Positions 28,722-63,335 of a stretch of 64,000 bases of DNA are shown here, one piece after another (within the stretch, counting starts at the first letter, position 1; each line of letters opens with the position of its first letter). Source of the DNA: Candidatus Eiseniibacteriota bacterium (GTDB lineage: Bacteria; Eisenbacteria; RBG-16-71-46; JACRLI01); NCBI GenBank assembly GCA_016235265.1, contig JACRLI010000015.1, positions 133,335 through 197,334 of the forward strand, in the 5' to 3' direction. The notes beneath the pieces are model-generated. The model did no database searches. It had not been told where the DNA came from and worked only from the letters and a program-made list of their open reading frames with translations. The translations under genes and the position numbers were made by a program.

Positions 28722-29042
28722 CTAGTGGGCCGGCTTGCGGAACGCGCTCAGGAGGGCCTCGACGATGGAGCCCCGGACCTCGGGACGCTCGTAGTAGCCC
28801 TCCTGGACGCGCTGCCGCGCCTGCTGCACCCGCTCCTCCCGGACATCCGGCACGTCCGCCGCCGCCCGCTTCACGGCCACCACGGCCTCGTGCACCCGCA
28901 GCTGGTCGCGGCCCTCCTCGGAGATGTCAATCTCGTCCGAGGACGGCCGGTCCGGCTTGCGGGAGGCGTCGCTGGCGGAAGCCTTGCGCGGGGGCTGGCT
29001 TCCCTCGGCGGCTCGGAACCGGTCGATCGGCGGAATCGGCAT
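28722..29042 (-). CDS. flgM: Anti-sigma28 factor FlgM
   Basis: 106 aa from ATG at 29042. C-terminal VREERVQQARQRVQEGYYERPEVRGSIVEALL matches the FlgM sigma28-binding helices. Confidence 0.75.
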   Translation of the reverse strand: MPIPPIDRFRAAEGSQPPRKASASDASRKPDRPSSDEIDISEEGRDQLRVHEAVVAVKRAAADVPDVREERVQQARQRVQEGYYERPEVRGSIVEALLSAFRKPAH

Positions 29043-29104
29043 GCTGGCTCTCTCCCGGGCGCTCGCGCCCGCGGGTGCGGTGAGTGTCGGGTTCGGCTTC
29101 GGCT

Positions 29105-29431
29105 TCAGGCGCTGCGCCGGCGCACGGGGTCTTTTCCCGCGTACCGGGAAGCGCATCGCTCCTGCATCTCCAGCGATTCCAGCTCGCGGGCCACCCGGTC
29201 CTGCTCCGTCACCACGGCGCGGTGGCAGAGCGCGAGCATCCGGGTGGCCGCCTCGGCCCAGCGCCTCGGCTCCGGGGCCGGGGCGCCGGCCGCGCGGAGG
29301 GCCCGGACGTGCTCATCGCACTCGGCGCCCGCCCGCGCGGCGGCCTGGAAGTCCATGCTCCGGAGAGCGGACCTCAGGCGCCGGGCGGAATCAAACAGTT
29401 CACGGGCCGGGTGGCGGGAAGTCTCAGGCAA
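29105..29431 (-). CDS. Hypothetical helical protein between flaG and flgM
   Basis: 108-aa ORF (MDFQAAARAGAECDEHVRALRAAG...), predicted helical. It sits where a chaperone-type gene is often found, but no family was recognised. Confidence 0.4.
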   Translation of the reverse strand: MPETSRHPARELFDSARRLRSALRSMDFQAAARAGAECDEHVRALRAAGAPAPEPRRWAEAATRMLALCHRAVVTEQDRVARELESLEMQERCASRYAGKDPVRRRSA

Positions 29432-29789
29432 CGCCGCCCTCGCCCGTGTCGGGTTCCTTCTCCTGTTCCTTGGCGTAGGCGCGCCGGATGCGAAGGGCCT
29501 CGTCCGTGGGGATCTGGCGCAGCACGTCGCCGCTGTCCTTGTCCACCACGCGGATGATGGTCTCCCGCAACTGCTGGTCCACGCTGAACATCACCCGCGT
29601 GCCCACCGGGGTGGGACCGGGCTGCTTCTCGCCGCCCTCCGGAGCCTGCCCCATCACGTGGGGCCGGACCGGCGCGCGGGTCGTGCCGGCATCATGCGTT
29701 CCGTCGCCGGACGCCGGTTCCGCCACGGCCCCGCTGTCCCACGTCGTGGGCATCGGGGTTCCGGGCTTGAGTGGTTCGATCGAGCTCAT
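29424..29789 (-). CDS. flaG: FlaG-family flagellar protein
   Basis: 121 aa from ATG at 29789 (GAGAGGA RBS). C-terminal VMFSVDQQLRETIIRVVDKDSGDVLRQIPTDEALRIRRA matches the FlaG family. Confidence 0.75.
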   Translation of the reverse strand: MSSIEPLKPGTPMPTTWDSGAVAEPASGDGTHDAGTTRAPVRPHVMGQAPEGGEKQPGPTPVGTRVMFSVDQQLRETIIRVVDKDSGDVLRQIPTDEALRIRRAYAKEQEKEPDTGEGGVA

Positions 29790-29813
29790 GCCGTCCTCTC
29801 TTGGCACGGGCGC

Positions 29814-31214
29814 CTAACCGCCCGTCAAACTGGACAGCTGTGACTGCCGGTCTGCCAGCGAGTTGGCAAGATCCTGAAGTCGGGCAAACTGCGCCACGAG
29901 CTGTTTCCGCCTGCGATCCAGGCGATCTTCCAATCCCGCCTTCCTGGCGTCGAGTGAAGCGGACAGGTCGTCGAGAGCTCGGGTCTCGAGGCGAAGCCTG
30001 CCGCCGGTTGAGGTGAAGTCGTCGACCAGGGTGTAGAGCCGCGAGGCGACTCCGTTGCTTCCCGCGAATACCGCCACGACCTGCGCCGGGTTGGCGTCGA
30101 GCGCCGCGGCGAGCTTGCTTTCGTCGGTGACCGAGAGCGTGCCGTCCTGGGCCGCGTCGATGCCCAGGTCGTACAGCCCCGCCGGGGCGCCGGCCGACAC
30201 TCCGTCCACCCGCCCGCCGGTGATGTCGCGCAGGTCGCCGCGCAGCGAACCGAACGAGCTGTTTCCGGACAGCGGGCCGCGGGTCTTGCCGTCATCGGAG
30301 ATGGCGCTCTTGGCCCGCACGTAGCCCAGCACGGCGTTGTACTTGGTGATGAAGTCGTCCACGACCTTCCGCGTGGCGGTGCCGTCGGCGGCGACCGTGA
30401 AGCTCACCGGGGTGGCGCTCTTCGCGTTGAGCGTGAGCGTGACCCCGGAGAGCACGTTGGCCACCTGGTTGCTGGCCGACGACAGGTCGAGCCCGTCCAG
30501 GTTGAAGGCCGCGTCCCTGGCCTGCTGGATGGTGGCCGCCGAGTACGAGGAGGACGTGGAGGCCCCCTGGATGCCCAGCTGGGCCGCCAGGCCGCCGGTG
30601 GCGTCCGCCACGTTGGCGACCAGGTTCTCCACGCCGGTCTTGGTGGACTGCAGCACCAGCCGGCGCGTGCCGGCGGCGGCGTCGGTGGTGATCACGGAGG
30701 CGCTGGCGCCGATGCCGGCCGCGTTCACGGCCTGCGCGATCGTCGAGAGCGCGGTGTCGTCGCTGAGCCCCGCGCCCAGGGTCACCTGGATGCGGGTGGT
30801 CGTGCCGCCCACCGTGATGTCGAAGGCGTAGTCGCCGGCCGCGAAGTCGGTGGCCGACTTGTTGAAGCTGCCGCTGCCCAGCATGTGCGACTGGGCCAGC
30901 TCGGTGACCGTCACCTGGTGGGTGCCGCGGGCCGCGCCCGCGGCCGCCGTGGCGCTGACCACCTGGGCGTTGGAGTTGGTGACGCTGAAGCCCAGCAGCG
31001 GGGAGAGCGTGCCGGTGCCGCGCAGGCCGTCCACCGCCGTGCGCAGGTCCGAGAGCATCTTCCCGATGTCGCTGAGGATGCCACGCGTCACGTCCAGCTG
31101 GGAGCGGCGCGCGATCAGCTTGTTGATCGGGCCGCGTTCCAGCTGCAGGAGCTGCTCGATCTGGGTGGCGAACTTGCCCCCCGATGTGGAGCTCACGCTG
31201 GACGTGGTGGCCAT
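29814..31214 (-). CDS. fliD: Flagellar filament cap protein FliD (HAP2)
   Basis: 466 aa; FliD N-terminal coiled coil (TSGGKFATQIEQLLQLERGPINKL) and C-terminal FliD domain. Confidence 0.88.
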   Translation of the reverse strand: MATTSSVSSTSGGKFATQIEQLLQLERGPINKLIARRSQLDVTRGILSDIGKMLSDLRTAVDGLRGTGTLSPLLGFSVTNSNAQVVSATAAAGAARGTHQVTVTELAQSHMLGSGSFNKSATDFAAGDYAFDITVGGTTTRIQVTLGAGLSDDTALSTIAQAVNAAGIGASASVITTDAAAGTRRLVLQSTKTGVENLVANVADATGGLAAQLGIQGASTSSSYSAATIQQARDAAFNLDGLDLSSASNQVANVLSGVTLTLNAKSATPVSFTVAADGTATRKVVDDFITKYNAVLGYVRAKSAISDDGKTRGPLSGNSSFGSLRGDLRDITGGRVDGVSAGAPAGLYDLGIDAAQDGTLSVTDESKLAAALDANPAQVVAVFAGSNGVASRLYTLVDDFTSTGGRLRLETRALDDLSASLDARKAGLEDRLDRRRKQLVAQFARLQDLANSLADRQSQLSSLTGG

Positions 31215-31236: not shown

Positions 31237-31596
31237 TCAGGCCGCGGTGGACATTCCGGCTTCCTTGCCGGTCAGGGCCGCGTGGCGGCTCTCTTCCATC
31301 GCCTGCTTCCACGCGTCGCGGAGGCAGGAGAGGATGCGTTCGGGCTGCTCGAAGCGGTTTTCCCGGACTTCGCGCAGGGCGTAGTCGTACAGCACCAGGA
31401 AGTTGCCCGCGACGGGCTGGTTGAAGTCGAGCGCCGCGATCAGCTCGGTGAGCACGTCGCGCACCAGCGACCGGTCCTGCTTGCGGCAGCCCTTCAGTCC
31501 CAGGTCGTAGGCCGCGAGCACGAGTTCCTGCGGGTTGCGGCTCAGGAGGTCGTGCTCGACGTAACGGCGGCTGCTGGAGTCCAGGTTCGACGGCAA
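31237..31596 (-). CDS. fliS: Flagellar export chaperone FliS (TTG start)
   Basis: 119 aa; FliS four-helix signature (ELVLAAYDLGLKG...AGNFLVLYDYALREV). Confidence 0.85.
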   Translation of the reverse strand: MPSNLDSSSRRYVEHDLLSRNPQELVLAAYDLGLKGCRKQDRSLVRDVLTELIAALDFNQPVAGNFLVLYDYALREVRENRFEQPERILSCLRDAWKQAMEESRHAALTGKEAGMSTAA

Positions 31597-31628
31597 AGGG
31601 GGCCTCGCTGCGTTGGTGTTGCTTCCGT

Positions 31629-31728
31629 TGATCCCGGGACCTCATCCCGGGTCTCTCATCCCCGGTTTCCCTTCCCCGGGCTTCCCATCCCGGGTCCGTG
31701 ATTCCGGGTTTCCGGCGGTCCCGGCGGG
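31629..31728. repeat. Seven tandem imperfect 13-15 bp repeats with CCCGGG/CCCCGG cores in the fliC-fliS intergenic region
   Basis: Read directly: TGATCCCGGGACC / TCATCCCGGGTCT / CTCATCCCCGGTTTCC / CTTCCCCGGGCTTCC / CATCCCGGGTCCG / TGATTCCGGGTTTCC / GGCGGTCCCGGCGGG. Confidence 0.8.
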
Positions 31729-31803
31729 GGCCCTTCGGCCCCCGCCGGGCGCACGGATTCGTCACGGGATCCTCAAAGAAGGGATCCCAGGCCCGGTCCC
31801 GGC

Positions 31804-32643
31804 CTAGCGGAACAGGGCCAGCAGCGCCTGCGAGTTCACGTTCGCCTGGGCGAGCACGGACGTGGACGTCTGCTGCAGGATCTGGTCGCGGACCACCAGC
31901 ATCTGCTCGTGGGCCACGTCGGCGTCCATGATTCGGCTGTAGGCCGCCTCGGTGTTGGTGATGGCCACCGCGATCACGTCTTCCTTGACGGTGAACCGGT
32001 TGGTCAGCGATCCCACGGTGGTCAGGCCGGAGTTGACCGTGGCCAGCGCGGAGGTCACTTCCTGCAGGTACGTGGAGTAGTTGCTGCTGTTGATGACGGT
32101 GCCCGAGGTGAGGCCGCTCATCTGCGTCATCGCCAGCGCGGTCGCCGAGTAGTTGCCCGACGTGAAGGCGGTCTGGCTGCCCTCGCCCGTCTGGAAGGTG
32201 AAGGTCACCGCGCTCGCCAGCAGGGACACACCGTTGAACGAGGTGTCGCTGGCGATGCTGTTGATTTCGTTCGTCAGCTGGGTCAGCTGCGCCGAGATCG
32301 CCTGCCGCTCGGTGGTGCCCAGGGAGTCCGAGGCCGCCTTCAGGATCTTGGACGACATCTCGGAGAGCACGTCCTTCATCTTCTCGAGGCCGCCCTCGGC
32401 GACGCCGATGAGGTTCTTCGCCTCACCCAGGTTGTCCATCACCTGGTTGAGGTTACGATTCCGGATGTCCAGCTTGCTGGCGATGGTCAGACCCGCGGGG
32501 TCGTCACCGGCCTCGTTGATCCGCTTTCCGGTCGCCAGGCGCAGCTGGTGGACAGCCAGGTCGCGGCTCACACCACGCAGGGCCTGCAGGATGTTCAAGC
32601 TCTGGATGTTGGACCGGATCCGTGAAATGTCCGAAGACGCCAT
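31804..32643 (-). CDS. fliC: Flagellin FliC (short, 279 aa)
   Basis: Conserved flagellin N-terminus (RIRSNIQSLNILQALRGVSRDLAVHQLRLATGKRINEAGDDPAGLTIASKL) and C-terminus (LAQANVNSQALLALFR); AAGGAG RBS. Confidence 0.93.
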   Translation of the reverse strand: MASSDISRIRSNIQSLNILQALRGVSRDLAVHQLRLATGKRINEAGDDPAGLTIASKLDIRNRNLNQVMDNLGEAKNLIGVAEGGLEKMKDVLSEMSSKILKAASDSLGTTERQAISAQLTQLTNEINSIASDTSFNGVSLLASAVTFTFQTGEGSQTAFTSGNYSATALAMTQMSGLTSGTVINSSNYSTYLQEVTSALATVNSGLTTVGSLTNRFTVKEDVIAVAITNTEAAYSRIMDADVAHEQMLVVRDQILQQTSTSVLAQANVNSQALLALFR

Positions 32644-32784
32644 TGGGAGATGACTCCTTGTGGTGCTTCACCATCCGTGGCGAAGCGGGTTTCCATACCC
32701 GAGGGTCTCGCAAGATCCCTCTGCGTTCGGGGATCCCATCGCCGGGCCGAGCTCCTCACCGGGGATCCAACCGTCTGGACTGGG

Positions 32785-32812
32785 TTTTCGGCATTACTCG
32801 CAGGAACTTTAG
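32785..32812 (-). promoter_or_regulatory. Sigma28 (FliA) promoter for fliC
   Basis: Minus strand reads TAAAGTT-N-GCCGAAAA with an exact 15-nt spacer between TAAA and GCCGAAAA (consensus TAAA-N15-GCCGATAA); about 140 nt upstream of the fliC ATG. Confidence 0.75.
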
Positions 32813-32937: not shown

Positions 32938-35829
32938 TCAGGCGGCTGCCCGCCCGGCCAGCGAGGGATCCGCGGCCAGGGCGCGCTCGTACGCCCCGGC
33001 GGCTTCGTCCTCGCGCCCCGCGGCCAGCAGCGCCAGGGCGTACTGCGACAGCAGCTGCGCGTCCGAAGCGTGCTGGGGCGTGAGCCTCTCGAACACCTTG
33101 AGACTCTCCGCCACGCGCCCCGCTTCCCGCAGCGCCACCGCACGCAGGAACTCGGTGTGCGGGTCGCCGCTGTCCTCGCGGAAGAGCTCCTCGAGCAATT
33201 CCAGCGCCTCGCCGGGCAGGTGGGCCCGGATCCGGGCGGCCGCCACGCGCGTGCGCAGTTCCCGCGGCGCCCCGACCACGCCCAGCGCGGCCAGCTCCAG
33301 GTCCCGCCCCTCGCGTTCCATCTGCTCGGCGATCCGCAGCGTGCACTGCCACGCGTTGTGCCGCGCGGGCTGAAGACCCGGGTCCAGCGACAGGGCGCGG
33401 TCGAAGGACTGCAGGGCCTCGCCGTAGCGTCCCGACTGGTACAGGGCGTTGCCCAGGTTGTAGCGGGCCAGCGCGGACTCCGGCTGCAGTTCCGCCGCGC
33501 GCATGTATTCGCGCACGGCCTCCCCGAAGCGGCCCAGGTAGTAGAGGCAGTTTCCGTGGTCCAGGCGCAGCGGGCCCTCGTCCAGGCTCTCCTCGCATGC
33601 CAGGCCCTGTCCCGAGGCCAGCAGCCTCCCCAGCAACTCCGCCGCGACCTGGTAGTCGCGCCCCATGAACTCGATGCCCGCGCGCAGGTAGGTCACCAGC
33701 GCGCTGTTCGGGCGGGCGGCCTCGGCCTCGTCCAGGTGGGAGCGGGCGGTCTCCCGGTTGCCCTCCGCGAGCGCGATCTGCGCCAGCTTGACGTGCGCCA
33801 GCGACAGGGCCTCGGGCGGCAGCGAGCGCCCGTGCAGCGAGGCCTCCAGCGGGATCACCGCGTCGGCGTTGCGTCCCAGCGCGAAGAGGGTCACGCCCAG
33901 ATGGAACAACAGGAACCGGTCCCCCGGACGTTCCGCGATCTCCCGGTGCAGCAGTCTCAGGTTGCGCTCCTGCTTGACGCGCAGCGTCTGCGCGTCCAGG
34001 CCGTAACCCGCGTGCAGGATGCGGATGTTGCTCCGCGCCAGCCGCGCCCCCCCCCGCACCAGCGAGGGAAGCACCTGCTCGTGCACCCGGCCCTCGAAGG
34101 CCACGCCCGGGAGCTTGCGGAACACGCGGCAGTAATGGTGGGACACCCCGCTCACCGCCTCGCCGTCGCGCATGCGGTTGGCGATCACCACCTCGGCCGC
34201 GTCCCAGCGCCCGCCGCGGAGCAGGGCCCGGAGTTCGTCCACGGAATCGGGGTCCAGCTCCTCGTCCGCATCCAGCACCAGCACCCACGGGCCCCGGGCG
34301 TGGGACAGCGCCAGGTTGCGCGGCGCGGAGAAGTCATCGTCCCAGGTGGTCGTGATCACCGCGGCGCCCATCGCGCGGGCCAGGTCGGGCGTGCCGTCCA
34401 CCGAGCCGGTGTCCACGACCACGATCTCATCAGCCACGCCGCGCACGCTGGCCAGCGCGCGCTCCAGCGAAGGCCGCGCGTCCCGCACGATCATGCACAC
34501 GCTCAGGTCCGCCCCGGTGACGCGGCTGCCGGAGACCAGCTCATCCTCGTCCATGGTCTCCTGCAACCGCAGCAGCTCGGCGTTTCCCGGCACGTGGGCC
34601 GCGCCCGACGCCAGCGCGGCGCGCGCCTCGTGGGGCCGGCCCAGCCCCATCAGCACGCGGGCCAGGGCCAGGTGCCCTTCGGGCAGGTGCGGTGTGAGCC
34701 GGGTGGCCTTCTCCAGGTGGGCCCGGGCGCTCTCCAGCTCCCCGGCCACCTCATCCAGCGACGCCAACTCCAGCAGCGCCTCCGCGGAGTTGGGCTGCAG
34801 GCGCAGCGCCGCCTCCAGGTGGGCGCGGGCGCGCGCCGGGTAGCCGCGGATCCGCTCGCACAGGGCCAGCTGCACGCGCACGTGCACCGGCTCGGCGTGG
34901 AAGTCCATCACCGCGTCGCTGGGCGGGGGCGGGGATTCCAGCAGCGAGGTCAGGATTTCCGCCGCGCGGGTGGGGTCGCCCGAGCGGCGGGCGGCCTCCG
35001 CCCGCAGCAACATCCCGCACTGCGTCCGGTCGTCCTCGCCGATCGCCTCCAGGGCCTCGGCGTTTCGCCCCGTCTCCAGGGCGCAGATGCACAGGTTCCA
35101 GTGCGCCTGCTGCAGGAACTCCGCTGGCAGCGGCGCCTCGAGCAGCCTGCGGAACAGGCCCCGGGCGCGCTCGTACTCGCCCATTGCCATCAGCGCGTTG
35201 GCGAGGTTGCGTTGCACCATGGGATCGTCGGAGCGCAGCCGCGCCTCCTCCTCCACGATGGCCAGGTTCCGCGCGCGGCGGGCCGGCTCGCGCTGCGGGT
35301 CGGCGTAACCGAGGTGGCGGATCACCACCGGGACGCGCTGGGCCGCCGCCGCCAGGGGCCCGTCCGGCCCGATCACCTGCTCGTGGAGCGCTCCCTCGAA
35401 GCGCACTCCCGGGAGGCGGCGGAAGACGCGGGGATAGTAGTGGGACAGCCACACTCCGGAATGGCGGTGCCGGGCCTCGCTCTCGATCCGCAGGCACATC
35501 GCCGGGAGGTACTCATCGGCATTTTCCAGGAACCGGCGCAGCCGCGCGCCGTTGAAGAAGTCGATGCGCTCGTCGGCGTCCAGGTACAGCACCCAGTCCC
35601 CGGTCGCCTGCGCCAGCGACGCGTTCCGTGCGGCGGCGAAATCGCCGGTCCACGCGAACCCGGACACCCGCGCGCCGGCGTCCCTCGCGATCTGCGCGGT
35701 GCGGTCGGTGGAGCCGGTGTCCACGACGATCATCTCGTCCACGAACTCGGAGGCCATCGCGAGGCACTCGCGCATGTGGACCTCCTCGTTCTTGACGATC
35801 ATGCACAGCGAAAGCCGGACCTCGGGCAC
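32938..35829 (-). CDS. Tandem-duplicated GT2 glycosyltransferase-TPR protein (two GT2 plus TPR modules), 963 aa
   Basis: Two copies of the family-2 glycosyltransferase DxD core (LSLCMIVKNEE...VVDTGSTDRT...LYLDADE and LSVCMIVRDARP...VVDTGSVDGT...LVLDADE), each followed by TPR repeats. Confidence 0.8.
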   Translation of the reverse strand: MPEVRLSLCMIVKNEEVHMRECLAMASEFVDEMIVVDTGSTDRTAQIARDAGARVSGFAWTGDFAAARNASLAQATGDWVLYLDADERIDFFNGARLRRFLENADEYLPAMCLRIESEARHRHSGVWLSHYYPRVFRRLPGVRFEGALHEQVIGPDGPLAAAAQRVPVVIRHLGYADPQREPARRARNLAIVEEEARLRSDDPMVQRNLANALMAMGEYERARGLFRRLLEAPLPAEFLQQAHWNLCICALETGRNAEALEAIGEDDRTQCGMLLRAEAARRSGDPTRAAEILTSLLESPPPPSDAVMDFHAEPVHVRVQLALCERIRGYPARARAHLEAALRLQPNSAEALLELASLDEVAGELESARAHLEKATRLTPHLPEGHLALARVLMGLGRPHEARAALASGAAHVPGNAELLRLQETMDEDELVSGSRVTGADLSVCMIVRDARPSLERALASVRGVADEIVVVDTGSVDGTPDLARAMGAAVITTTWDDDFSAPRNLALSHARGPWVLVLDADEELDPDSVDELRALLRGGRWDAAEVVIANRMRDGEAVSGVSHHYCRVFRKLPGVAFEGRVHEQVLPSLVRGGARLARSNIRILHAGYGLDAQTLRVKQERNLRLLHREIAERPGDRFLLFHLGVTLFALGRNADAVIPLEASLHGRSLPPEALSLAHVKLAQIALAEGNRETARSHLDEAEAARPNSALVTYLRAGIEFMGRDYQVAAELLGRLLASGQGLACEESLDEGPLRLDHGNCLYYLGRFGEAVREYMRAAELQPESALARYNLGNALYQSGRYGEALQSFDRALSLDPGLQPARHNAWQCTLRIAEQMEREGRDLELAALGVVGAPRELRTRVAAARIRAHLPGEALELLEELFREDSGDPHTEFLRAVALREAGRVAESLKVFERLTPQHASDAQLLSQYALALLAAGREDEAAGAYERALAADPSLAGRAAA

Positions 35830-35859
35830 GGTGTTCCTCCTCGATGCGCGCGGCGGCCG

Positions 35860-36657
35860 CTACGCCGCCCGCTGCGCCGTCTCCAGCCGCCGGAGCAGGC
35901 TGGGCAGCAGCGCCAGCTCCGGGTTGCGCCATTTCTGCTGGAACAGGGCGCGGTTGCGTTCGATCAACGCCATGTAGTCCACGCCCTCGGCGCGGAATGT
36001 GGCGCTGCCCTCGTGGTGCACGAAGCAGCTTTCCACCACCAGGCACTTCAGGCCCAGCAGGCGGGTCCTCAGGCAGTAGTCGTCGTCCTCGAAGTTGCCG
36101 ATCCCGAAGCGCTCGTCCCATTCGCCCACGGCGTCGGCCGTCTCCCGGGTGAAGGCGAGGCAGAAACCCACCAATCGCTCCACCTCGCGCACCGCGCCGA
36201 AGCGCGTGGCGGCCAGGGTGCGGGCCACGCCGTCGGGCCCGCCGCTGCGCGCGTAGTCCACCGGGACGCACTGCGCACCGGAGCAGTTGTTGGTGAGCGG
36301 GCCCGCCAGCCCCGCGCCGGGCAACGCCAGCGCCTCGTGCAGCTCCTCCAGCCAGCCCGGAGTGACCTGCACGTCGCTGTTGAGCAGCACCAGCGTCCCG
36401 CCGCGGGAAGCGTCCACCAGCTGGTTGACGGCAGCCGCGAAGCCGCGGTTCCCGGGATTCACGATCAGGCGCACGTCGCGGCCGGCGAGGTCCTCGCGCA
36501 CGTCCGCGCGGGAGCCGTTGTCCACGATCACGATCTCGTGGGGCTGCCGGGTGTGGCGGCCGATGCTCTCGAGAGCCAGCCGCAGCAGCGGCAGCTGGTT
36601 CCATACCGGCACCAGGATGGACGTGAGCCGGGGTTCGATTCCGCGTTCAACCGGCAA
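35860..36657 (-). CDS. GT2-family glycosyltransferase (probable TTG start overlapping upstream stop)
   Basis: About 265 aa; TSILVPVWNQ...IVIVDNGS...LNSDV...FGIGNFEDDDYCLR family-2 GT motifs. Confidence 0.7.
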   Translation of the reverse strand: MPVERGIEPRLTSILVPVWNQLPLLRLALESIGRHTRQPHEIVIVDNGSRADVREDLAGRDVRLIVNPGNRGFAAAVNQLVDASRGGTLVLLNSDVQVTPGWLEELHEALALPGAGLAGPLTNNCSGAQCVPVDYARSGGPDGVARTLAATRFGAVREVERLVGFCLAFTRETADAVGEWDERFGIGNFEDDDYCLRTRLLGLKCLVVESCFVHHEGSATFRAEGVDYMALIERNRALFQQKWRNPELALLPSLLRRLETAQRAA

Positions 36658-39529
36658 GGGGCAGTTCCTCCTCCCCGGCGGCGCCCAGCAGGCGCAGCCG
36701 GTCGTGGATGTCCTCGTTTCGCGGGGCCAGCTTGCGGGCCAGGTGGAAGCACTGCACCGCCATGTCCGTGCGCCCGATGGAGAGCAGGCAGTCCCCGGTG
36801 TCCAGCAGCGCCTCAGGATCCTGTGGATCCAGTTCGAGCAGCCGGGAGAACGCCCCGGCGGCCTCCTCCCCGCGCCCCAGGTGGCGGAGCACGTGGGCCA
36901 GGTGGCCCAGCGCCCGTCGCGAGCGCGGGGCGCGTCGCACGGCCTCCGCGAATTCCCGGGCCCCGGCTTCGAAGTCTCCGCAAGCGCAGCGCGCAATCCC
37001 CAGCAGCAGCGCCAGTTCCGCCGGCCCGTCGCCCGTGGCGTGGGCGGCCTCGAGGCGTGCCACCGCCTCGCGCACGAGCCCCGCGTCGAGCTCTTCCGAT
37101 GCGGCGCGCAGCAGCGCGCGCACCGCGGGGTCGCCCGCCTCGGGCAGGTCCGGCACGGCGCGCACCGGCGGGTGCCCCAGCAGGAAGTACTCCGCCGCGG
37201 TCACGCCCCACTTGAGGGCGAACGCCCGCGCCGCCGAAGGCGCGCCTTCCTCCGGGTCCCCGCCGTCCACGTGCACGTAGGTGTCGCGGGCCACCGTGAG
37301 CCCCAGGCCCGACTCCCGGGCCCGCAGGCAGAAGTCGTCCACGGCCGCCTGCCCGTCCAGCGCCTCGTCCAGCTCGCCGATGCGCTCCACCACCTCGCAC
37401 CGGAGCGCCAGGCATTCGGGACGGAGCCCGGGAGTGTCCGCGTAGTCCATCCGCCGCAGCGCGCGCAGCTGCGCCGCGGCCTCCGCCGGCCCGGCCGAGC
37501 AGAGCGCCTCGCCGACCGCCTGGGCGCCGGAGGGCACCGGCAGCAGCGGGCCGGCCATGCCGGCCGCGTCCCGGTCGGCCAGCGCCCCCAGGAGCCCCTC
37601 GAGCCACCCGGCGGTCACCCGGGCCCGGTCGTCGAGCAGCACCACGAAGCGTCCCTTGGCCGCGCGCACGGAGGCGTTGGCGGCGCGGGACAGGCCCGGG
37701 GCGGACCCGGTCCCGACCGCGCGCGCACCCAGCCGCGCCAGCTCCGCGGGGAATGCCCCGCAGCCCGGGTCCCAGGCCACCAGGATTTCGTGGGACAGCG
37801 TCGTGTGGCGGCGCACCGCCTCCGCGCACTCCGCGGCCTGGCGCACGCCATGCCCGGGCAGGAGCACCACGGAGGTGAGGCCGACGGGCAGCACCTCCGT
37901 GCGCGGCCCCCCGCCCCGGCGGCGCCAGCAGGTCAGGAACCCGTCCTCGAGATGCACCGGATGAACGTCGGGCCGCACCCGCCCCGCCCACCGGGCGTTG
38001 AGCACCTTGGCGTTGTGCGACATGCGCGAGAAGCGCTCCGGGCCGCCCATGGACTCGTGGTGCGTGAGGACGCTGCGGGGTCGGTACACCACGCGGAAGC
38101 CGTGGGCCCGGGCGCGGAAGCACAGGTCCACGTCCTCGAAGCCGTTCCAGTAGGCGGGATCGAAACCGCCCAGCGCGTCGAACAATTCCCCGCGAACCAG
38201 GCAGCACGCCGCGGTGACCACCTGGAAGTCCCGCGGACGGTCCACGTGCGGGGCCCCGGCCGGGTCGTGCTGGTAGATGTGGAACCCGGTCACCCCCTGC
38301 GGGAAGTCGGGGTTGCCGGCCACCGTCACGCCGGCGTGCTGGATGGTCCCGTCGGGGAACAGCAGCTTGCTGCCCGCGATCCCCACCGTGGGGTCCTGGT
38401 CCAGCGCCTCCACCAGCGGCCCGAGCCAGCCCGGGTGCGCCTCGGTGTCGTTGTTGAGCAGCAGCACGTGGCAACCGGCGGCCGCGCGCGCGCCCTGGTT
38501 GCAGGCCCTCGCGAACCCGACATTCACCGGGTTGCGGATCAGCCGGATGCGCGGCAGGAACTCCGCCAGCGCCTCGCGCGGGTCCTCCACCGAGGCGTTG
38601 TCCACGACCACCACCTCGAAGCTGGCCCCCGCGGGGACGGAGAAGAGCGAGGCGAGACACTGCCGCGTCCATTCGGACTTCCCGTAGGCGGGGATCACCA
38701 CGGTGGCGTCGGGACGCTTCGTGGCCGGGTCGCACCGCCACGCGGAGGGCCGCAGGTCCGGGAAGCCGCGCAGGCCGGCGGCCGCGCCCGCGCCGCACGC
38801 GGTGCACTCCAGCGGACGGCATTCGCGGCCGGTGGCGCAAACCGCGGCGGCGGCGCAGGCCGGGCACAGCAGGGCCGGCGCCAGCGCCTCCGCCACGGCG
38901 GCCGGGCCGGAGCCCGGGAGCCCGGAGAGGCTGTCGAGCACGGGCACCCGGGGCTCCAGGCGCGTGAGGACCACCAGCGTGCGCCCCGAATCCGGGGAGG
39001 CCGTGGACCGAGCCAGGCGCGCCCACGCGCCGCGCTGCGAGCGCAGCGCGCGGCTCACCTCGGGGCGCACCTCGGGCAACCGGTCGGCCTGGGCGGCGGC
39101 GCACTCCACCGCCGCGCTGCCCCAGGGGAGCCTGCGGGTCTCGAAGCGCCCGTCGGAGCGGGCGTGCCACTCGATTCTCCCGGCCAGGCCCGCGGGGGCG
39201 GCCACCACCACCAGCTCCGCGGCCACCCGCATCGCGGCGGTGAGGATCGCCTCCAGTTCCCCTTCCGCCAGGTCGGCGCCGGCGTCGGTCCACGCCACGG
39301 CCCGCACCGCGCCCTCGCGCAGCGCCGGCCGGGCGGGATCGCCCAGCAGCGTGATCTCCGCCCGCCCCGGACGCGCCCCGTACACCGGCCCCAGGCCCAG
39401 GTGCGGCGCGTCCCACGCCCCATTCCACCCGTCCCGGCCGTGCCGCAGTTCCAGCACCGAGGAGCAGTCCAGGCCGGCGTCCTCCAGGAATCCGGTCAGC
39501 GGCGCCCAGCGCACCACGTCACCCAGCAT
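36647..39529 (-). CDS. Multi-domain glycosyltransferase (Cys-rich zinc-ribbon-like motif, two GT2-like domains, TPR C-terminus), 960 aa
   Basis: CPACAAAAVCATGRECRPLECTACG Cys cluster; GT2 core (TVVIPAYGKSEW...VVVVDNAS...LLLNNDTEAHPGWL...DVDLCFRA); second Rossmann-like GT-A region; TPR repeats. Confidence 0.75.
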   Translation of the reverse strand: MLGDVVRWAPLTGFLEDAGLDCSSVLELRHGRDGWNGAWDAPHLGLGPVYGARPGRAEITLLGDPARPALREGAVRAVAWTDAGADLAEGELEAILTAAMRVAAELVVVAAPAGLAGRIEWHARSDGRFETRRLPWGSAAVECAAAQADRLPEVRPEVSRALRSQRGAWARLARSTASPDSGRTLVVLTRLEPRVPVLDSLSGLPGSGPAAVAEALAPALLCPACAAAAVCATGRECRPLECTACGAGAAAGLRGFPDLRPSAWRCDPATKRPDATVVIPAYGKSEWTRQCLASLFSVPAGASFEVVVVDNASVEDPREALAEFLPRIRLIRNPVNVGFARACNQGARAAAGCHVLLLNNDTEAHPGWLGPLVEALDQDPTVGIAGSKLLFPDGTIQHAGVTVAGNPDFPQGVTGFHIYQHDPAGAPHVDRPRDFQVVTAACCLVRGELFDALGGFDPAYWNGFEDVDLCFRARAHGFRVVYRPRSVLTHHESMGGPERFSRMSHNAKVLNARWAGRVRPDVHPVHLEDGFLTCWRRRGGGPRTEVLPVGLTSVVLLPGHGVRQAAECAEAVRRHTTLSHEILVAWDPGCGAFPAELARLGARAVGTGSAPGLSRAANASVRAAKGRFVVLLDDRARVTAGWLEGLLGALADRDAAGMAGPLLPVPSGAQAVGEALCSAGPAEAAAQLRALRRMDYADTPGLRPECLALRCEVVERIGELDEALDGQAAVDDFCLRARESGLGLTVARDTYVHVDGGDPEEGAPSAARAFALKWGVTAAEYFLLGHPPVRAVPDLPEAGDPAVRALLRAASEELDAGLVREAVARLEAAHATGDGPAELALLLGIARCACGDFEAGAREFAEAVRRAPRSRRALGHLAHVLRHLGRGEEAAGAFSRLLELDPQDPEALLDTGDCLLSIGRTDMAVQCFHLARKLAPRNEDIHDRLRLLGAAGEEELPLAG

Positions 39530-40538
39530 CTCGGCCTCCGTCCGGTCGCCTTTCGTGGCCGGCCGCCTCGCGGCGGGCCAGCTCGTCCAGCGCGTACACC
39601 GTGCGCTCCGCCTCTTCCAGCGTCACCGCGGCCTCGCACGGGAAGCTCAGCGCGCGCCGCAGGTACTCCACCGCGCCGGGAAAGCTCCGCCGCACGTGAG
39701 GATCGTCGGGGTCCAGCCCCAGGGCCAGCCGCAGCTGCGGCCGCGCCACGCGCACGCCGCGCGCGTGCAGCTGGCGCGCCCATGCCGCGTTGGGATAGGC
39801 CGTCGAGCCGAACAGCACCCGCACCGTGTAGCGCGGCCACGTGCCGCGGGTGCCGCGCGCGTACTCGGGCAGGCGGACGCCATCCAGCGGGCCCCAGGCG
39901 GATTCCCAGAGCGCGGCCAGGCGGCGCTGCCCCGCGACGCGCGCGGGAAGGGCCGCCAGGAATTCCTCCAGCGCCGGATCGGCCGGCGCCCCCACCTCAA
40001 CGGAGGGCGGGGGCAGCTTGCGACCCGCCTCCTCCACCGTGCCCGCGTCGGCCGAGGCGATGCGCGCCGCGCGGTCGGGACCGTGCAGCAGCACCGCGTC
40101 GGCGTGGGCCCCCGGAAGGAAGCCCTGGGCCATCGCCCCCAGCGACTCGCGCACCTCCTCGACCACCACCGCGTCACGGCGCCGGGCCAGGGCGGCCAGT
40201 TGCGGTCCGTCCGGCGGCAGGCCGTCCACGTCGGCGCACCACAGGGCCTCGAAGCCCCGGCCTTCGCGGGCCACCGAGGACACATCCAGGCGCCCGGTGT
40301 CGGGATCCACATCCAGCGGGACCACGTCACAACCGCCCCGCCTCAGAGCCTCGGCGGCCTGCGTGCAGCCCCACACCGGCAGCGCCACGCGCGCGCCGGG
40401 CCCCAGGCCCAGCGTGCGCGACAGCGCCTGCGCGGCGGTGCGGAACGGGACCGGTCGGGTCAGCGCGACCACCTCCAGGTGGTCCTCCAGTCCCTCGGGC
40501 AGCCCCGCGGGGCGGATCGGCTGGCGCAGCGCGCTCAC
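39519..40538 (-). CDS. DegT/DnrJ/EryC1-like (PLP-dependent sugar aminotransferase-like) protein, possibly degenerate
   Basis: 339 aa from GTG at 40538 (GTGA overlap); VALPVWGCTQAAEALRRGGCDVVPLDVDPDTGRLD resembles the DegT motif (PSFTF.A...G..PVFVDID..T.NID); assignment is tentative. Confidence 0.45.
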   Translation of the reverse strand: MSALRQPIRPAGLPEGLEDHLEVVALTRPVPFRTAAQALSRTLGLGPGARVALPVWGCTQAAEALRRGGCDVVPLDVDPDTGRLDVSSVAREGRGFEALWCADVDGLPPDGPQLAALARRRDAVVVEEVRESLGAMAQGFLPGAHADAVLLHGPDRAARIASADAGTVEEAGRKLPPPSVEVGAPADPALEEFLAALPARVAGQRRLAALWESAWGPLDGVRLPEYARGTRGTWPRYTVRVLFGSTAYPNAAWARQLHARGVRVARPQLRLALGLDPDDPHVRRSFPGAVEYLRRALSFPCEAAVTLEEAERTVYALDELARREAAGHERRPDGGRDAG

Positions 40539-41515
40539 GAGGCGGCTCTCCAGGCCGCGCCGCGGGCATCGCGGGTTCGGCCCGCGTCCGCGGCGGCCCA
40601 GGCGCGCATCTCGCGCAGCCCTTCCCGGAGCGTCACCGACGGGGCCCAGCGCAGCAGCCGCGCCGCGAGCGAGGGGTCCCCGCGCATGCGGCCGATCTCG
40701 GCCAGCGGCGCGGGGTGGGTGACGAAGGTGTAGCCGACCCCCGCCGACATGGAGCGCCCCAGCTCGGAGAGGCGCGTCTCCTCGCCGGAGGCGGCGTGCA
40801 CCACCGTGCCGTGCACGCGGAGATCCTCGCCCATCTCGGCCAGCAGCCGCGCCACGTCCCGGGCGTGCACGAAGTCGCGGCTCTGACGGCCGTCGCCGTG
40901 GATCTTCACCTTCTCGCCGCGGGCGACGCGGCGGGCGAACGTGGCGATCACGCTGTCGTCCTCCTCCCCTTCGGGAACGGGGCCGTACGCGCCGAACACC
41001 CGGCACACCGAAACCGGCAAACCGTGGGTGTGATCGCAGGACAGCGCCAGCTGCTCGGCCGCCAGGAGCGCCGCGGCGCGCGGTGTGCGCGCCGCGGTGG
41101 GCCAGGACTCCGACTGCTTCTCCCGGCCGCGGTAGGGCTCCAGCACCTCGGAGCTGCCCGCGAGCACCAGCCGCGCCCGGTGCGCCCGGCACGCCTCCAC
41201 CACCTCCAGCGCCTCGCCGACCACGCGGCGGAACGCCTCACGCGGCGACGCGTCCGCGGCGGAGGCACGCGGCACCTGCCAGAAACACACCGCCGGCCGC
41301 TCCGAGAACACCGGCAGCAGCTCCTCGGGGTTGCCCACGGCGCCCGCGCTGAAACCCAGGAATCCCTCCCGGCCCGCCAGCTCCGCGTACCCGCGGGCGG
41401 AGGCCTCCGACCTGCCCAGCACGCGCACCGAGTGTCCGCGCGCCAGCCACTCGGCGACCAGCGCGTGGCCCAGGGCGCCCGAGCCGCCGACCAACGCCGC
41501 GCTCAGGCCGCGCAC
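40535..41515 (-). CDS. NAD-dependent epimerase/dehydratase (SDR family)
   Basis: About 326 aa from GTG at 41515; glycine-rich NAD motif VGGSGALGHALVAEWLARGHSV; epimerase C-terminal region. Confidence 0.65.
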   Translation of the reverse strand: MRGLSAALVGGSGALGHALVAEWLARGHSVRVLGRSEASARGYAELAGREGFLGFSAGAVGNPEELLPVFSERPAVCFWQVPRASAADASPREAFRRVVGEALEVVEACRAHRARLVLAGSSEVLEPYRGREKQSESWPTAARTPRAAALLAAEQLALSCDHTHGLPVSVCRVFGAYGPVPEGEEDDSVIATFARRVARGEKVKIHGDGRQSRDFVHARDVARLLAEMGEDLRVHGTVVHAASGEETRLSELGRSMSAGVGYTFVTHPAPLAEIGRMRGDPSLAARLLRWAPSVTLREGLREMRAWAAADAGRTRDARGAAWRAAS

Positions 41516-44103
41516 GCCTCCGCCTTCCCGGGGCGCGGCGCAGGCCGGGCCCGCAGCGCCTCCTCCAGGCCCTCCACCAGGTCCATCCGGCTTTGGGCGC
41601 GCGCGCGGCGCAGCGCCTCGGCGGTCGCGTCCCGCGCCCCGGCGTAATCGCCCATGCGCGCCAGGAGGTCGGCGCGCCGCAGGGCCGGCGCGAGCTCGCC
41701 GGGCATCAGCTCGCACAGGCGCGCATAGCCGCTGGCCGCCACCGGCAGGTTCCCGTGGGTCTCCGCGAGGCGCGTGGCCTCGGATACCGCCCAGGTGTTG
41801 GCGGGCTCCAGGTTGATCGCCTGCTGGTACTGTCCGACGGCGTCCTGCACCCGCCCGGCGGCCTCCAGCACGCGCCCGCAGGCCACCAGCAGCACGGCGG
41901 GTCGCGGGGTTTCAAGCAACTCCCGCCGCATCAGCTCGCCCGCGGCGCCGAAGTCGCGCATGGCGGCCAGGGAGAGCGCCAGGCCGGACACGGCCCCGGG
42001 CAGGTGCGGATGGGCGCCCAGCACGCGGGCGAAGATTTCCGACGCGGCCTCGGGGGAGTTGGACTCGAGCAGTTCGTGCCCGCGGCTCATGGCGTCGGCC
42101 AGGTGCACCGGATCGCCCAGGTCGCGCTCCTCCCGGGGCCCGTCCGGTCCCAGGCCCAGAGCGGGTCCGAGGAGGCTGGCGATGCGCTCGTCGCCATGCG
42201 CCTCTCGCACCAGCTCGCGCCCCGCGCGCGAAAGCGCCTCCCACGCCTCCTTCGAGTCGTACAGCTCCGCGATGGCGCGGGCGAACCCCTCGGGGTCCGA
42301 TGCGATCCTCGCGTTCCGCCCATCCACCAGGTGCATGCCCTCGGCGCCCACCGGGGTGGTCACGCACGGCAGGCCGCAGCCCAGCGCCATGGCGATCTTG
42401 CCCTTGAGCCCCGCACCGTAGCGCAGCGGGGCGATCGAGACGCGGGCCCCGGAGAGGTACGGGGCCAGGTCGGGAACGTAACCGGTGACCTCGATGTCCC
42501 CTCCGTGGAGCCGCCGCACCGATTCCGGCGGGCGGTCACCCACGATGCGCCAGCGCACGCCGGGCAGCAGTTCGCGCACCCGGGGCCACACCTCGGCGTG
42601 GAACCACGCCACCGCGTCCACGTTGGGCAGGTGGCGGAAGCCCGCCAGGAACACCAGGTCGCGGCGCGCCTCGAAACCGGGCTCGTGCTCGTCCACGTGG
42701 TAGACGTCGGGCACCACGCGCACGTCGCGATCCGGCAGGTGGCGCAGCAGCTCGAGTCGGTCGTCCTCGGTGACGGTCAGCACGGTGTTGGCGCAGCGGT
42801 AGGCCGCCAGTTCCCGGGCCTGCATCTGACGGAACGGCCTCCAGGTCTCCGGGAGGTCCTCCTGGCGCGCGCGGCGGGCGTGCCGCAGGAAATCGAGGTC
42901 CACCGAGTCGATCACGATGCGCGTCCGCGGACTCTCCTGGATCAGCCGGGGAATGAGGCGCAGGGCCGACTCGTAGAACGGCAGCAGCGCGACGTCGTAG
43001 TCGCGACCCGCGAGCAGCGCGCCCATCGCCGCGGAGGGGTCCACCCGCGGCGGGCTGCCCTGCAGCGGGCGGTCCAGCGGGTACACCATCACTCCCGTGG
43101 CGCGCAGCCGCTCCACGTAGGGAGCCAGATCGATGCCTTCGTGCTCCCCGCTGTGCAGGCAGGCCACGGTCACGTGGTGGCCGCGCTCCGCGAGGAGCCG
43201 CACCATGTTGTGGATGCGCTGGAAGCCGGAGGCGCGGTCGAAGAGCGGCGGGATCTCGTGGAACATCAGCACCTGGCGGCCCGAGATGCGGTGCGCCGCG
43301 CGCGCGGTCTCACGCGGGTCGCGGGTCACGACCGGCTGGAGGCGCAGTTCCGCGGTCCACTTCTCGAGGAACTTGGGCCGGTTGACGGCCTGGAACTTCT
43401 TGAATCCGGACTCGGTGTCGCGGCCCGCGGTCACGCCCTCGTGATGCACCACCCGTGCGGCGGGCTGGTAGACCACCCGCAGGCCCTCGCGGCGCGCGGC
43501 GAAACACAGGTCGGTGTCTTCGTAGTAGGCGGGCGCGAAGCGGCGGTCGAAGCCACCCAGCTTCCGGAACAGGCTGGCGCGCGCCAGCAGGCAGGCGCCG
43601 GAGCCGTAGTCCACCTCGCGGACGTAGGCGTACTCGGGAGCCTCGGGATCGCCGCCGCGGCCGTAGTTGCATCCGGTGGCGTCGGAGAAGAGGATGCCGC
43701 CCGCCTCCTGCAGCGTGCCGTCGGTGTTGAGCAGGCGCGCACACACGACTCCCGCGGTGGCGTCGCGCTCGGCGGTATCCACCAGCGCCTCGAGCCAGCC
43801 GGGCGCGGGGAGGGTGTCGTTGTTGAGGAACACCAGGTACTCGCCGCCCGCGACCTCGGCAGCGCGGTTGTTGCCGTCCACGAAGCCGAGGTTCTCCGGG
43901 CTGGAGATCACCTGCATGGCGCCCTCGGGGAGGCTGCCCCGGAACGCCGCCAGCCAATCCCCGGTGCCGTCGGTGGACGCGTTGTCCACCACCACCAGTT
44001 CGTAGAGGCCGGCGGGCGTGACGTCGCGCACCCGCTCCAGGCAGGCGCGGGTGTGCGCGAGGTGGTTGAAACAGACGACCAGGATGCTGGCTTTCGGCGG
44101 CAT
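41503..44103 (-). CDS. Multi-domain glycosyltransferase (GT2 plus GT4-like plus TPR), 866 aa
   Basis: ATG at 44103 with GAGGAG RBS; N-terminal GT2 (ILVVCFN...VVVDNAS...FLNNDT...YYEDTDLCF); central GT-B/GT4-like region (GAGLKGKIAMALGCGLPCVTTPVGAEG); C-terminal TPR. Confidence 0.8.
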   Translation of the reverse strand: MPPKASILVVCFNHLAHTRACLERVRDVTPAGLYELVVVDNASTDGTGDWLAAFRGSLPEGAMQVISSPENLGFVDGNNRAAEVAGGEYLVFLNNDTLPAPGWLEALVDTAERDATAGVVCARLLNTDGTLQEAGGILFSDATGCNYGRGGDPEAPEYAYVREVDYGSGACLLARASLFRKLGGFDRRFAPAYYEDTDLCFAARREGLRVVYQPAARVVHHEGVTAGRDTESGFKKFQAVNRPKFLEKWTAELRLQPVVTRDPRETARAAHRISGRQVLMFHEIPPLFDRASGFQRIHNMVRLLAERGHHVTVACLHSGEHEGIDLAPYVERLRATGVMVYPLDRPLQGSPPRVDPSAAMGALLAGRDYDVALLPFYESALRLIPRLIQESPRTRIVIDSVDLDFLRHARRARQEDLPETWRPFRQMQARELAAYRCANTVLTVTEDDRLELLRHLPDRDVRVVPDVYHVDEHEPGFEARRDLVFLAGFRHLPNVDAVAWFHAEVWPRVRELLPGVRWRIVGDRPPESVRRLHGGDIEVTGYVPDLAPYLSGARVSIAPLRYGAGLKGKIAMALGCGLPCVTTPVGAEGMHLVDGRNARIASDPEGFARAIAELYDSKEAWEALSRAGRELVREAHGDERIASLLGPALGLGPDGPREERDLGDPVHLADAMSRGHELLESNSPEAASEIFARVLGAHPHLPGAVSGLALSLAAMRDFGAAGELMRRELLETPRPAVLLVACGRVLEAAGRVQDAVGQYQQAINLEPANTWAVSEATRLAETHGNLPVAASGYARLCELMPGELAPALRRADLLARMGDYAGARDATAEALRRARAQSRMDLVEGLEEALRARPAPRPGKAEACAA

Positions 44104-44161
44104 GGCTCCTCGCGCGGAAATGGAAGACGGATGGCCGGGCGGGCCGGACATCCTGCGGAGA

Positions 44162-44313: not shown

Positions 44314-44559
44314 TCAGTCCTTCTTGGGTTTCACCTTCCGGAGCACCCGGGCGGCATCCTTGATGTCCAGCGGGGAGGCGTTCGCCGCGCGGCGATTCTC
44401 CTCCTGGATGCGCTCGTAGATCTCCTCGCGGTGAACGATCACCTCGGGCGGAGCTTCGATCCCGAGCTTCACCTGCGTGCCGCGGACTTCGAGGACCGTG
44501 ATTTTCACGTTGTCCCCGATCCGAATGTTCTCGCCCAACTTCCGTGTTAGGACCAGCAT
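44314..44559 (-). CDS. csrA: Carbon storage regulator CsrA (flagellin translational repressor type)
   Basis: 81 aa from ATG at 44559 (GGAGG RBS); [51 protein letters not shown] is the canonical CsrA fold sequence. Confidence 0.93.
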
Positions 44560-44609
44560 CAGTTGCTGCCTCCGCGGCCGGACGCCATCGGGCGCCCGAA
44601 CCCGGCTCA

Positions 44610-63329: not shown

Positions 63330-63335
63330 GCGGCG

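Follow-up and report, generated by a model that had tools for sequence, protein, structure and literature searches.

The junction between fliC and fliS in the 64-kb stretch of Eisenbacteria DNA analysed here (the window, with a GC content of 72.5%) raises the question of whether the row of short GC-rich repeats lying behind the flagellin gene takes part in flagellar gene control. A sequence-only reading of the locus had proposed that it does, either as a platform for CsrA or as an attenuator, and this interpretation is partly supported. The array is real, non-coding, unique within the 64-kb window and absent in the relatives examined. We regard it as probably accidental in origin, not as a control element conserved by evolution.

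The repeat array and its setting

The gene order obtained with Pfam (Table 1) bears out the position previously assigned to the repeats on the minus strand, between fliC and the genes fliS–fliD–flaG–flgM. About 11 kb of glycosyltransferase and sugar-modification genes separate fliC from the block that includes fliW and csrA. The FliS and flagellin encoded here are identical to proteins from a Candidatus Eisenbacteria MAG. The fliC–fliS spacer measures 207 nt (31597-31803), and the independent Logan assembly L004, the only other assembly of this organism, has an identical 207-nt spacer, array included.

Table 1. Coordinates of the repeat array, of neighbouring RNA elements and of the surrounding genes in the window
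Feature	Position	Strand	Remarks
flgN-flgK-flgL-fliW-csrA	47850-44314	-	upstream of fliC, same strand
fliW	44610-45056	-	downstream of flgN-flgK-flgL
csrA	44314-44610	-	downstream of flgN-flgK-flgL
TPR-glycosyltransferase gene	32938-35829	-	Pfam
fliC promoter and 5′ leader	32644-32812	-	
Sigma-28-type promoter, TAAAGTTC-N11-GCCGAAAA	32785-32812	-	
GGA-loop hairpin GGGT-ATGGAA-ACCC	32687-32700	-	ANGGA in 6-nt loop, conserved
GGA-loop hairpin CGCC-ACGGAT-GGTG	32669-32682	-	ANGGA in 6-nt loop, stem covaries in relatives
fliC Shine-Dalgarno region, ACAAGGAGT	32653-32661	-	GGA-containing
fliC (flagellin, 279 aa)	31804-32643	-	Pfam Flagellin_N 1.7e-30, Flagellin_C 1.4e-15
First hairpin after fliC stop, GGGATCC-CTTCTTTGA-GGATCCC	31766-31788	-	7 bp
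13-bp GC hairpin, CCCGGCGGGGGCC-GAAG-GGCCCCCGCCGGG	31720-31749	-	stem 100% complementary
CCSGG core starts	31633, 31646, 31661, 31675, 31689, 31704, 31720		
U0, GCCGGGACCGCCGGAAA	31709-31725	-	end of 3′ arm and flank of conserved hairpin; present in relatives
Array, six units U1-U6	31622-31708	-	TRF, repeat search; absent in all relatives of alignment A2
U1, CCCGGAATCACGGA	31695-31708	-	
U2, CCCGGGATGGGAAG	31681-31694	-	
U3, CCCGGGGAAGGGAAA	31666-31680	-	
U4, CCGGGGATGAGAGA	31652-31665	-	
U5, CCCGGGATGAGGT	31639-31651	-	
U6, CCCGGGATCAACGGAAG	31622-31638	-	
fliS Shine-Dalgarno, GAGG	31603-31606	-	with the TTG start of fliS, ~25 nt past U6
fliS (119 aa, TTG start)	31237-31596	-	Pfam FliS; start homologous to relatives' fliS start
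fliD	29814-31214	-	Pfam
flaG	29424-29807	-	Pfam
Unassigned 108-aa ORF between flaG and flgM		-	
flgM	28722-29156	-	Pfam
HDOD protein gene, next after flgM in minus-strand order		-	Pfam

Seven CCSGG cores, spaced by 13-16 nt, lie in the spacer between 31633 and 31724. There is no other chain of three or more such cores within the 64-kb window, and the densest CCSGG cluster as well as the densest CCCGGG cluster of the window are found at the array. In 200 mononucleotide shuffles, the longest chain comprised three cores in 137 cases, four in 16 and five in one, and never exceeded five. Similarly, a two-unit pattern gave four matches against 0.53 expected, a number reached in no shuffle. TRF reports a period of 14 with 4.7 copies and 75% matches, and a repeat search recovered five copies at spacings of 14, 14, 15 and 14. 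The seven-repeat array announced by the sequence-only reading is confirmed. Of the seven CCSGG cores, four (31633, 31646, 31675 and 31689) are perfect CCCGGG; the remaining three read CCCCGG, TCCGGG and CCCGGC. The last of these is formed by the 3′ arm of another, conserved hairpin, an arm that the sequence-only reading had counted as the seventh unit. The minus-strand RNA quoted in that reading matches the sequence, and the RNA is rich in GGA: 12 GGA fall within 110 nt (31612-31721, minus strand), the maximum for a strand whose mean is 2.6 (sd 1.67). In predicted folds, the self-complementary cores are able to form GC hairpins, again as proposed.

The same reading regarded the array as non-coding and the plus-strand ORF running through it as artefactual, and we concur, because the repeat period is not divisible by 3 and the ORFs overlapping the array on the plus and minus strands have no counterpart in relatives, where the DNA itself is missing. 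A small protein encoded by the array was accordingly rejected, given its 14-nt period and the lack of counterparts in relatives for both the 64-aa plus-strand ORF and the 190-aa minus-strand ORF. An N-terminal extension of FliS was likewise discarded: an in-frame TGA occurs 48 nt upstream of the TTG start, and the start codons of relatives align with that of the window. Because the 14-nt unit contains AUGA, three short AUG-started frames are found in the array, and such AUG...UGA frames (31656-31688, 31642-31659) are preceded by no convincing Shine-Dalgarno sequences. As for a promoter of fliS within the spacer, the scan returned no sigma-70-type site and no sigma-28 or sigma-54 motif was seen by eye. 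No Rfam family was matched at the gathering threshold; at permissive thresholds the sole match was a weak one to RsmW (E = 2), which lies beyond the array and on the other strand.

Related loci and the conserved hairpins

Relatives were reached through homologues of FliS (62-86% identical) and of FliC (56-91% identical), which were traced to their contigs. Eleven distinct loci were obtained in this way. The spacer sequence was read for nine of them (L005/6/7, L008-11, L012, L013, L014, L015/16, L017, L138/139 and L141-145), and the two others, on the P0026 (7,044 nt) and P0020 (1,468 nt) contigs, were judged from gene coordinates alone, which give spacers of 109 and 120 nt, respectively. In all 11 loci the fliC–fliS spacer is 57-121 nt long, as compared with 207 nt here, and the array is missing from every one of them, the closest relative being 91% identical in FliC. 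In alignment A2, each relative displays a single gap of about 90 nt, exactly at the array. Close relatives keep both hairpins of the spacer and GGGACCGCCGGA, with the start of fliS following about 24 nt later. L141, which represents a more distant Eisenbacteria lineage, has the gene order csrA–fliC–fliS, a single hairpin and a spacer of 57 nt. Scanning the genome collection with FliD brought up only distant Verrucomicrobia, at 28-33% identity, which were of no use for judging conservation.

The sequence-only reading had suggested that conservation of the array be checked in related strains, and the outcome is negative. Since the array is absent in all 11 relatives, it is no part of the flagellar control circuit of the clade, and we infer that it has no regulatory role in that conserved regulation. 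By contrast with the array, the hairpins listed in Table 1 are shared. The base pairs of the 13-bp hairpin are kept in nine of nine sequences, and at a paralogous flagellin locus (L140) its shape is retained through the compensatory replacement of GGCC/GGCC by GATC/GATC and of CCCGG/CCGGG by CCTGG/CCAGG. The first hairpin after the fliC stop codon is conserved in position, and its stem covaries in relatives (GGGGTC/GACCCC, CCGGAGC/GCTCCGG). The 13-bp hairpin looks like a terminator or a decay barrier, but one without a U-tract, and the pair most likely marks the 3′ end and the stability boundary of the abundant fliC message. Judged by this comparison, the conserved element at the fliC–fliS junction is the hairpin pair, and the array appears as an add-on of one lineage.

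Origin and possible functions of the array

The reading that we consider probable is that the array is a decayed slipped-strand minisatellite, restricted to one lineage and situated behind the conserved hairpin pair. It has several features of a minisatellite, namely head-to-tail units, a near-constant period of 13-15 nt, and six units together with U0, their likely template. The outer units are close in sequence to the hairpin's 3′ flank (CCGGGACCGCCGGAA), and therefore the array may be taken to have arisen by local slipped-strand duplication. U0 and U6 agree at 12 of 17 positions and U1 and U6 at 13 of 14; a 15-nt direct repeat, formed by the U0 region and 31623-31637 (12 of 15 positions identical), brackets the array; and U6 with the tail aligns with the ancestral hairpin flank. 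The most derived units are the inner ones, U2-U5. Similar outer units combined with derived inner units are, as far as sequence can tell, the signature of tandem duplication in place and not of a foreign insertion.

The events may be pictured as follows. Slipped-strand mispairing would have copied a unit of about 14-15 nt head-to-tail, with the sequence 3′ of the conserved hairpin behind fliC, most likely U0, as the template. Some 87-90 nt would thereby have been inserted between the hairpin and the ribosome-binding site of fliS, and the copies would later have diverged, mainly by A/G changes in the spacers between cores. The array would be transcribed whenever RNA polymerase reads through from fliC into fliS–fliD–flaG–flgM, and its RNA is predicted to form a separate, compact, GC-rich domain behind the two conserved hairpins. 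Its effect would most likely be nil, or else a modest boost to the barrier against read-through or decay between fliC and fliS.

Intergenic minisatellites and VNTRs resemble the array in that they consist of head-to-tail units of 13-15 nt, derive from adjoining sequence and occur in one lineage only. The array differs from VNTRs in that its units are already degenerate (about 75% identity), present-day variation by slippage being unlikely, and in that its core is far better conserved than its spacer. Arrays of this kind apparently arise readily, since unrelated ATCCCGGG arrays are common in metagenomes: a scan for three ATCCCGGG units with gaps of 4-8 nt gave at least 120 matches in varied contexts. 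The matches listed are all unrelated and consist of arbitrary units of 12-16 nt repeated in tandem; many are coding, and none of those listed lies at a fliC–fliS junction. One match (L050) is located 2.4 kb from a fliD gene; the array is in this case inside an ORF and unrelated. On its own, the array of the window would be of little consequence: it is a repeat expansion in a single lineage, and nothing indicates that the clade relies on it.

The contrast between core and spacer deserves attention nevertheless. The 8-nt core CCCGGGAU shows 4 mismatches over 48 positions as compared with 15 over 35 in the unit spacers (Fisher p = 4e-4), and the unit spacers are purines at 31 of 36 positions on the transcribed strand. 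Conserved cores separated by free, purine-rich spacers could be the pattern expected if selection acted on the RNA fold or on a binding motif present in repeated copies. Alternatively, the contrast could be explained by the shared ancestry of the units together with GC-biased composition or substitution in a genome of 72.5% GC. It is mainly owing to the better conservation of the cores that the functional readings, taken together, retain a minor but appreciable share of the probability.

The best of these readings, which we nevertheless regard as unlikely, sees in the array an active attenuator, or an active stability element, whose hairpins have been selected. It would reduce read-through into fliS and the genes beyond, or block the 3′-to-5′ decay of fliC mRNA, and so tune the FliC:FliS:FliD:FlgM ratio in this lineage. 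The conserved intercistronic hairpins lie immediately in front of the array, which separates a gene with very high expression from genes that are less needed, and the cores are conserved in preference to the unit spacers. The predicted fold of the whole spacer is more stable than those of shuffled sequences (z = -3.84), the array alone being predicted at -42.9 kcal/mol, with a U1:U4 helix around a U2:U3 hairpin and an additional U5:U6 hairpin, all within an independent domain. Alternative pairings exist because every core is able to pair with every other, and neighbouring cores could in this manner operate as a switch; yet no sensor and no conserved leader peptide, nor any leader peptide logic, was found at the locus, and none of the 11 relatives has the array.

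Other properties speak against attenuation more directly. While the GC-rich stem-loop of an intrinsic terminator is present in the 13-bp hairpin and in the array hairpins alike, no stem is followed by a U-tract (the sequence 3′ of the stems is GGGACCGCCGGAAA / AUCAACGGAAGC), and a scan of the spacer for the terminator consensus was negative. Deleting the array in silico leaves the predicted accessibility of the fliS ribosome-binding site essentially unchanged, the unpaired probability of the Shine-Dalgarno sequence being 0.03 in the native and 0.07 in the deleted form, and that of the start 0.19 and 0.25, respectively. Moreover, in the relatives the two conserved hairpins suffice. Of the attenuator or terminator put forward by the sequence-only reading, the GC hairpins are supported; the conserved element that resembles a terminator is the neighbouring 13-bp hairpin.

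Intercistronic stem-loops can set differential mRNA stability or partial termination within operons, as exemplified by the malE–malF REP and the puf hairpins of Rhodobacter. The situation here is comparable in that stable GC stems lie between the highly expressed fliC and genes in lower demand. This description suits the two conserved hairpins, to which the array contributes additional stems. In contrast to hairpins of the malE–malF or puf type, however, the array is not conserved and lacks a U-tract.

Still less credit can be given to the possibility that the array is a CsrA-binding platform, whose many GGA, carried on the fliC read-through RNA or the fliS leader, would bind CsrA dimers. Such binding might titrate CsrA in the manner of an mRNA-borne CsrB/RsmZ sponge or, alternatively, permit discoordinate control of fliS–fliD–flaG–flgM. 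Both fliW and csrA are encoded within the window, and the array, where GGA reaches its maximum on the strand, is also where motifs of the GGAUG/GGAAG type are densest. Its unit spacers are purine-rich and its cores conserved; three ANGGA motifs are present (ACGGA in U1, AGGGA in U3 and ACGGA in U6); and in the predicted local fold the loop AUGGGAAG and two internal loops expose GGA. A precedent comes from Campylobacter jejuni, in which flaA mRNA titrates CsrA, flaG is a weak target and CsrA also binds between genes in polycistrons (PMC4894983).

The same study reports an A at position -2 of the GGA in 324 of 328 CsrA targets (PMC4894983), whereas 8 of 11 GGA in the array lack this A and only 3 of 11 are ANGGA. 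Seven of the array GGA overlap the CCCGGG stems, and for most GGA the probability of being unpaired is predicted at 0.01-0.6. GGA does not occur in the Shine-Dalgarno sequence of fliS (GAGG), from which the closest ANGGA (ACGGA in U6, 31624-31628) is more than 15 nt away in the upstream direction. Rfam gave no match to a Csr/Rsm family. Finally, all 11 relatives do without the array and keep the CsrA-type sites of the fliC leader (see below) and, where the contig extends far enough (L141), fliW–csrA as well.

With respect to known CsrA targets and sponges (the hag and flaA leaders, CsrB/RsmZ), the array shares clustered GGA, a flagellin-associated transcript, a genome encoding both FliW and CsrA, and the location of some GGA in predicted loops. 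It departs from known flagellin CsrA sites in lying 3′ of fliC, in being mostly non-ANGGA and in being largely buried within stems, and from CsrA targets and sponges in general in being unmatched in Rfam and not conserved. The available portions of the literature on CsrA at flagellin 5′ leaders, and on its occasional intercistronic binding, contain nothing resembling it. CsrA binding to the array is accordingly possible but unsupported, and non-conservation excludes it from the core circuit of the clade. For the CsrA/FliW platform of the sequence-only reading, this leaves the presence of fliW and csrA and the density of GGA as the parts that hold, set against the lack of conservation, the paucity of ANGGA and the overlap of most sites with the stems. 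It is tempting to speculate that the array is a recently evolved, mRNA-borne CsrA sponge superimposed on an ancestral FliW–CsrA–fliC-leader circuit, but this too seems to us improbable. Should it be true, multiplication of a GGA unit downstream of the flagellin message would provide additional CsrA titration, or place fliS–fliD–flaG–flgM under CsrA-dependent control, and the locus would offer a snapshot of the birth of CsrB/RsmZ-like multi-site RNAs from simple tandem duplication.

Two further readings have very little in their favour. An action at the DNA level, with the row of palindromic CCCGGG serving a DNA-binding protein or a restriction-modification enzyme, or with the purine-rich strand (GGGATGGGAAGCCCGGGGAAGGG, 31669-31691) folding into a G-quadruplex and so affecting transcription or translation, could invoke the perfect 6-bp palindromes at regular period and the canonical G3+N1-7 motif within the array, one of just 10 clusters of this type on the strand in 64 kb, but it is most improbable in view of a 14-bp period that is out of helical phase, of a CCCGGG count in the window that is neither notably depleted nor enriched (106 versus about 145 expected from base composition), of complementary C-tracts beside every G-tract, which favour hairpins over quadruplexes, and of the absence of the array from every relative.

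Hardly more can be said for a dispersed REP-like or mobile repeat that landed in the spacer. REP/BIME elements are scattered over the genome in many copies, frequently with alternating orientation, and their unit is an imperfect palindrome of some 35 nt. The array is similar in placing GC-rich, palindrome-bearing repeats in an intergenic spacer within an operon, but it has a 14-nt unit in which the palindrome spans 6 nt, its copies all point the same way, and the outer units match the local flank, favouring an origin in place. A genome-wide dispersed REP element had been named by the sequence-only reading as the finding that would count against it; neither the 64-kb window nor some 90 kb of sequence from related loci contains a second copy, and the array is thus not shown to be such an element.

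The fliC promoter and 5′ leader

The 5′ leader of fliC, in contrast to the array, carries candidate CsrA sites that are conserved. Its ANGGA density is the second-highest on the minus strand of the window. Close relatives conserve the sigma-28-type promoter, both GGA-loop hairpins and the Shine-Dalgarno region; the GGGTACGGAAACCC hairpin and a Shine-Dalgarno sequence with GGA are present in the distant L141 too. The known CsrA sites of B. subtilis hag and C. jejuni flaA belong to the 5′ leader, where small loops present ANGGA and a site covers the Shine-Dalgarno sequence (PMC13443453, PMC4894983), and the fliC leader of the window matches this two-site architecture. It is probably the real CsrA target.

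The leader sites would correspond to the expected target of the FliW–CsrA partner switch, and they supply concrete predicted CsrA sites for Eisenbacteria. This bears on a recent prediction that CsrAs of this phylum are mostly "non-functional" in a B. subtilis hag assay (PMC13443453). The conserved parts of Eisenbacteria flagellin loci, namely the sigma-28-type promoter, the GGA-hairpin leader and the fliC–fliS hairpin pair, are of more use than the array. One other ANGGA-rich sequence of the window, a 9-nt repeat at 1938-2025 with eight ANGGA, was considered as a candidate sponge and set aside, as it is coding and specifies DAKDPK repeats at the N-terminus of FliL.

Leader and 3′ flank of the flagellin gene

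The region upstream of fliC contains a sigma-28-type promoter, from which a leader of about 140 nt would extend. This leader folds into two conserved hairpins, each presenting ANGGA, a CsrA-type recognition motif, in a 6-nt loop, and its Shine-Dalgarno sequence likewise contains GGA. The leader is kept across the Eisenbacteria relatives and its stems covary. The fliC 5′ leader is likely the target of the FliW-CsrA pair, and for the Eisenbacteria phylum it appears to be undescribed so far.

At the other end of the gene, the two hairpins directly following the fliC stop codon show compensatory changes in the paralogous flagellin locus L140 and in the relatives' loci L008 and L012, and no U-tract follows either of them. 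The probable role of the pair is to terminate transcription in part or to shield the fliC mRNA from decay. Several metagenomic contigs of relatives (L014-L017) have their first base within the fliC-fliS hairpins or shortly ahead of them. Assembly seems to stop where the flagellin gene ends; the presence of more than one flagellin copy, as at the paralogous locus L140, is a possible cause.

Features of the window discussed in the text
Feature	Position	Strand	Remarks
fliC upstream region	32644-32812	minus	sigma-28-type promoter TAAAGTTC-N11-GCCGAAAA
Hairpin pair	31720-31749 and 31766-31788	minus	directly 3′ of fliC stop; position and structure kept in all close relatives
Canonical G-quadruplex motif GGGATGGGAAGCCCGGGGAAGGG	31669-31691	minus	within array
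Chain of tiny overlapping frames	31642-31688	minus	array
108-aa ORF	29105-29431	minus	flaG-flgM interval
Block of about 11 kb	32938-44151	minus	separates csrA from fliC
9/27-nt tandem repeat	1938-2025	minus	highest ANGGA density in window
39-nt unit tandem repeat, 3.2 copies	63329-63454		score 180, one of the two top scores in window
42-nt unit tandem repeat, 2.1 copies	48811-48898		score 118, one of the two top scores in window

Tandem repeats

The array of CCCGGG-type units in the fliC-fliS spacer includes a canonical G-quadruplex motif, of a type that forms only 10 clusters on the minus strand in 64 kb. Since C-tracts adjoin it, hairpins are the more likely structure at this site. The array also contains short frames that run from AUG to UGA, 10 and 5 codons in length, with overlapping stop and start codons, and they continue into a long ORF that covers fliS out of frame; as the 14-nt unit contains AUGA, this chain is probably a by-product of the repeat period.

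The ANGGA-rich 9/27-nt repeat is coding sequence: its translation gives the DAKDPK-type repeats with which a FliL protein starts at its N-terminus (gene 1453-2058, minus strand, with a MotB-like gene upstream). The two top-scoring repeats are probably coding as well, both periods being multiples of 3.

Neighbouring genes

The ORF between flaG and flgM had no Pfam match; ORFs of similar size and position are found in the relatives' loci L005 (110 aa), L008 (82 aa) and L012 (102 aa). It may encode an unrecognised flagellar chaperone or regulator.

The block between csrA and fliC encodes GT2-TPR glycosyltransferases, three of them of about 880-960 aa, together with a smaller GT2 enzyme, a DegT-type aminotransferase and an NAD-dependent epimerase/dehydratase. 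In L141, which belongs to a more distant Eisenbacteria lineage, fliC directly follows csrA. The block probably represents an island for flagellin glycosylation.
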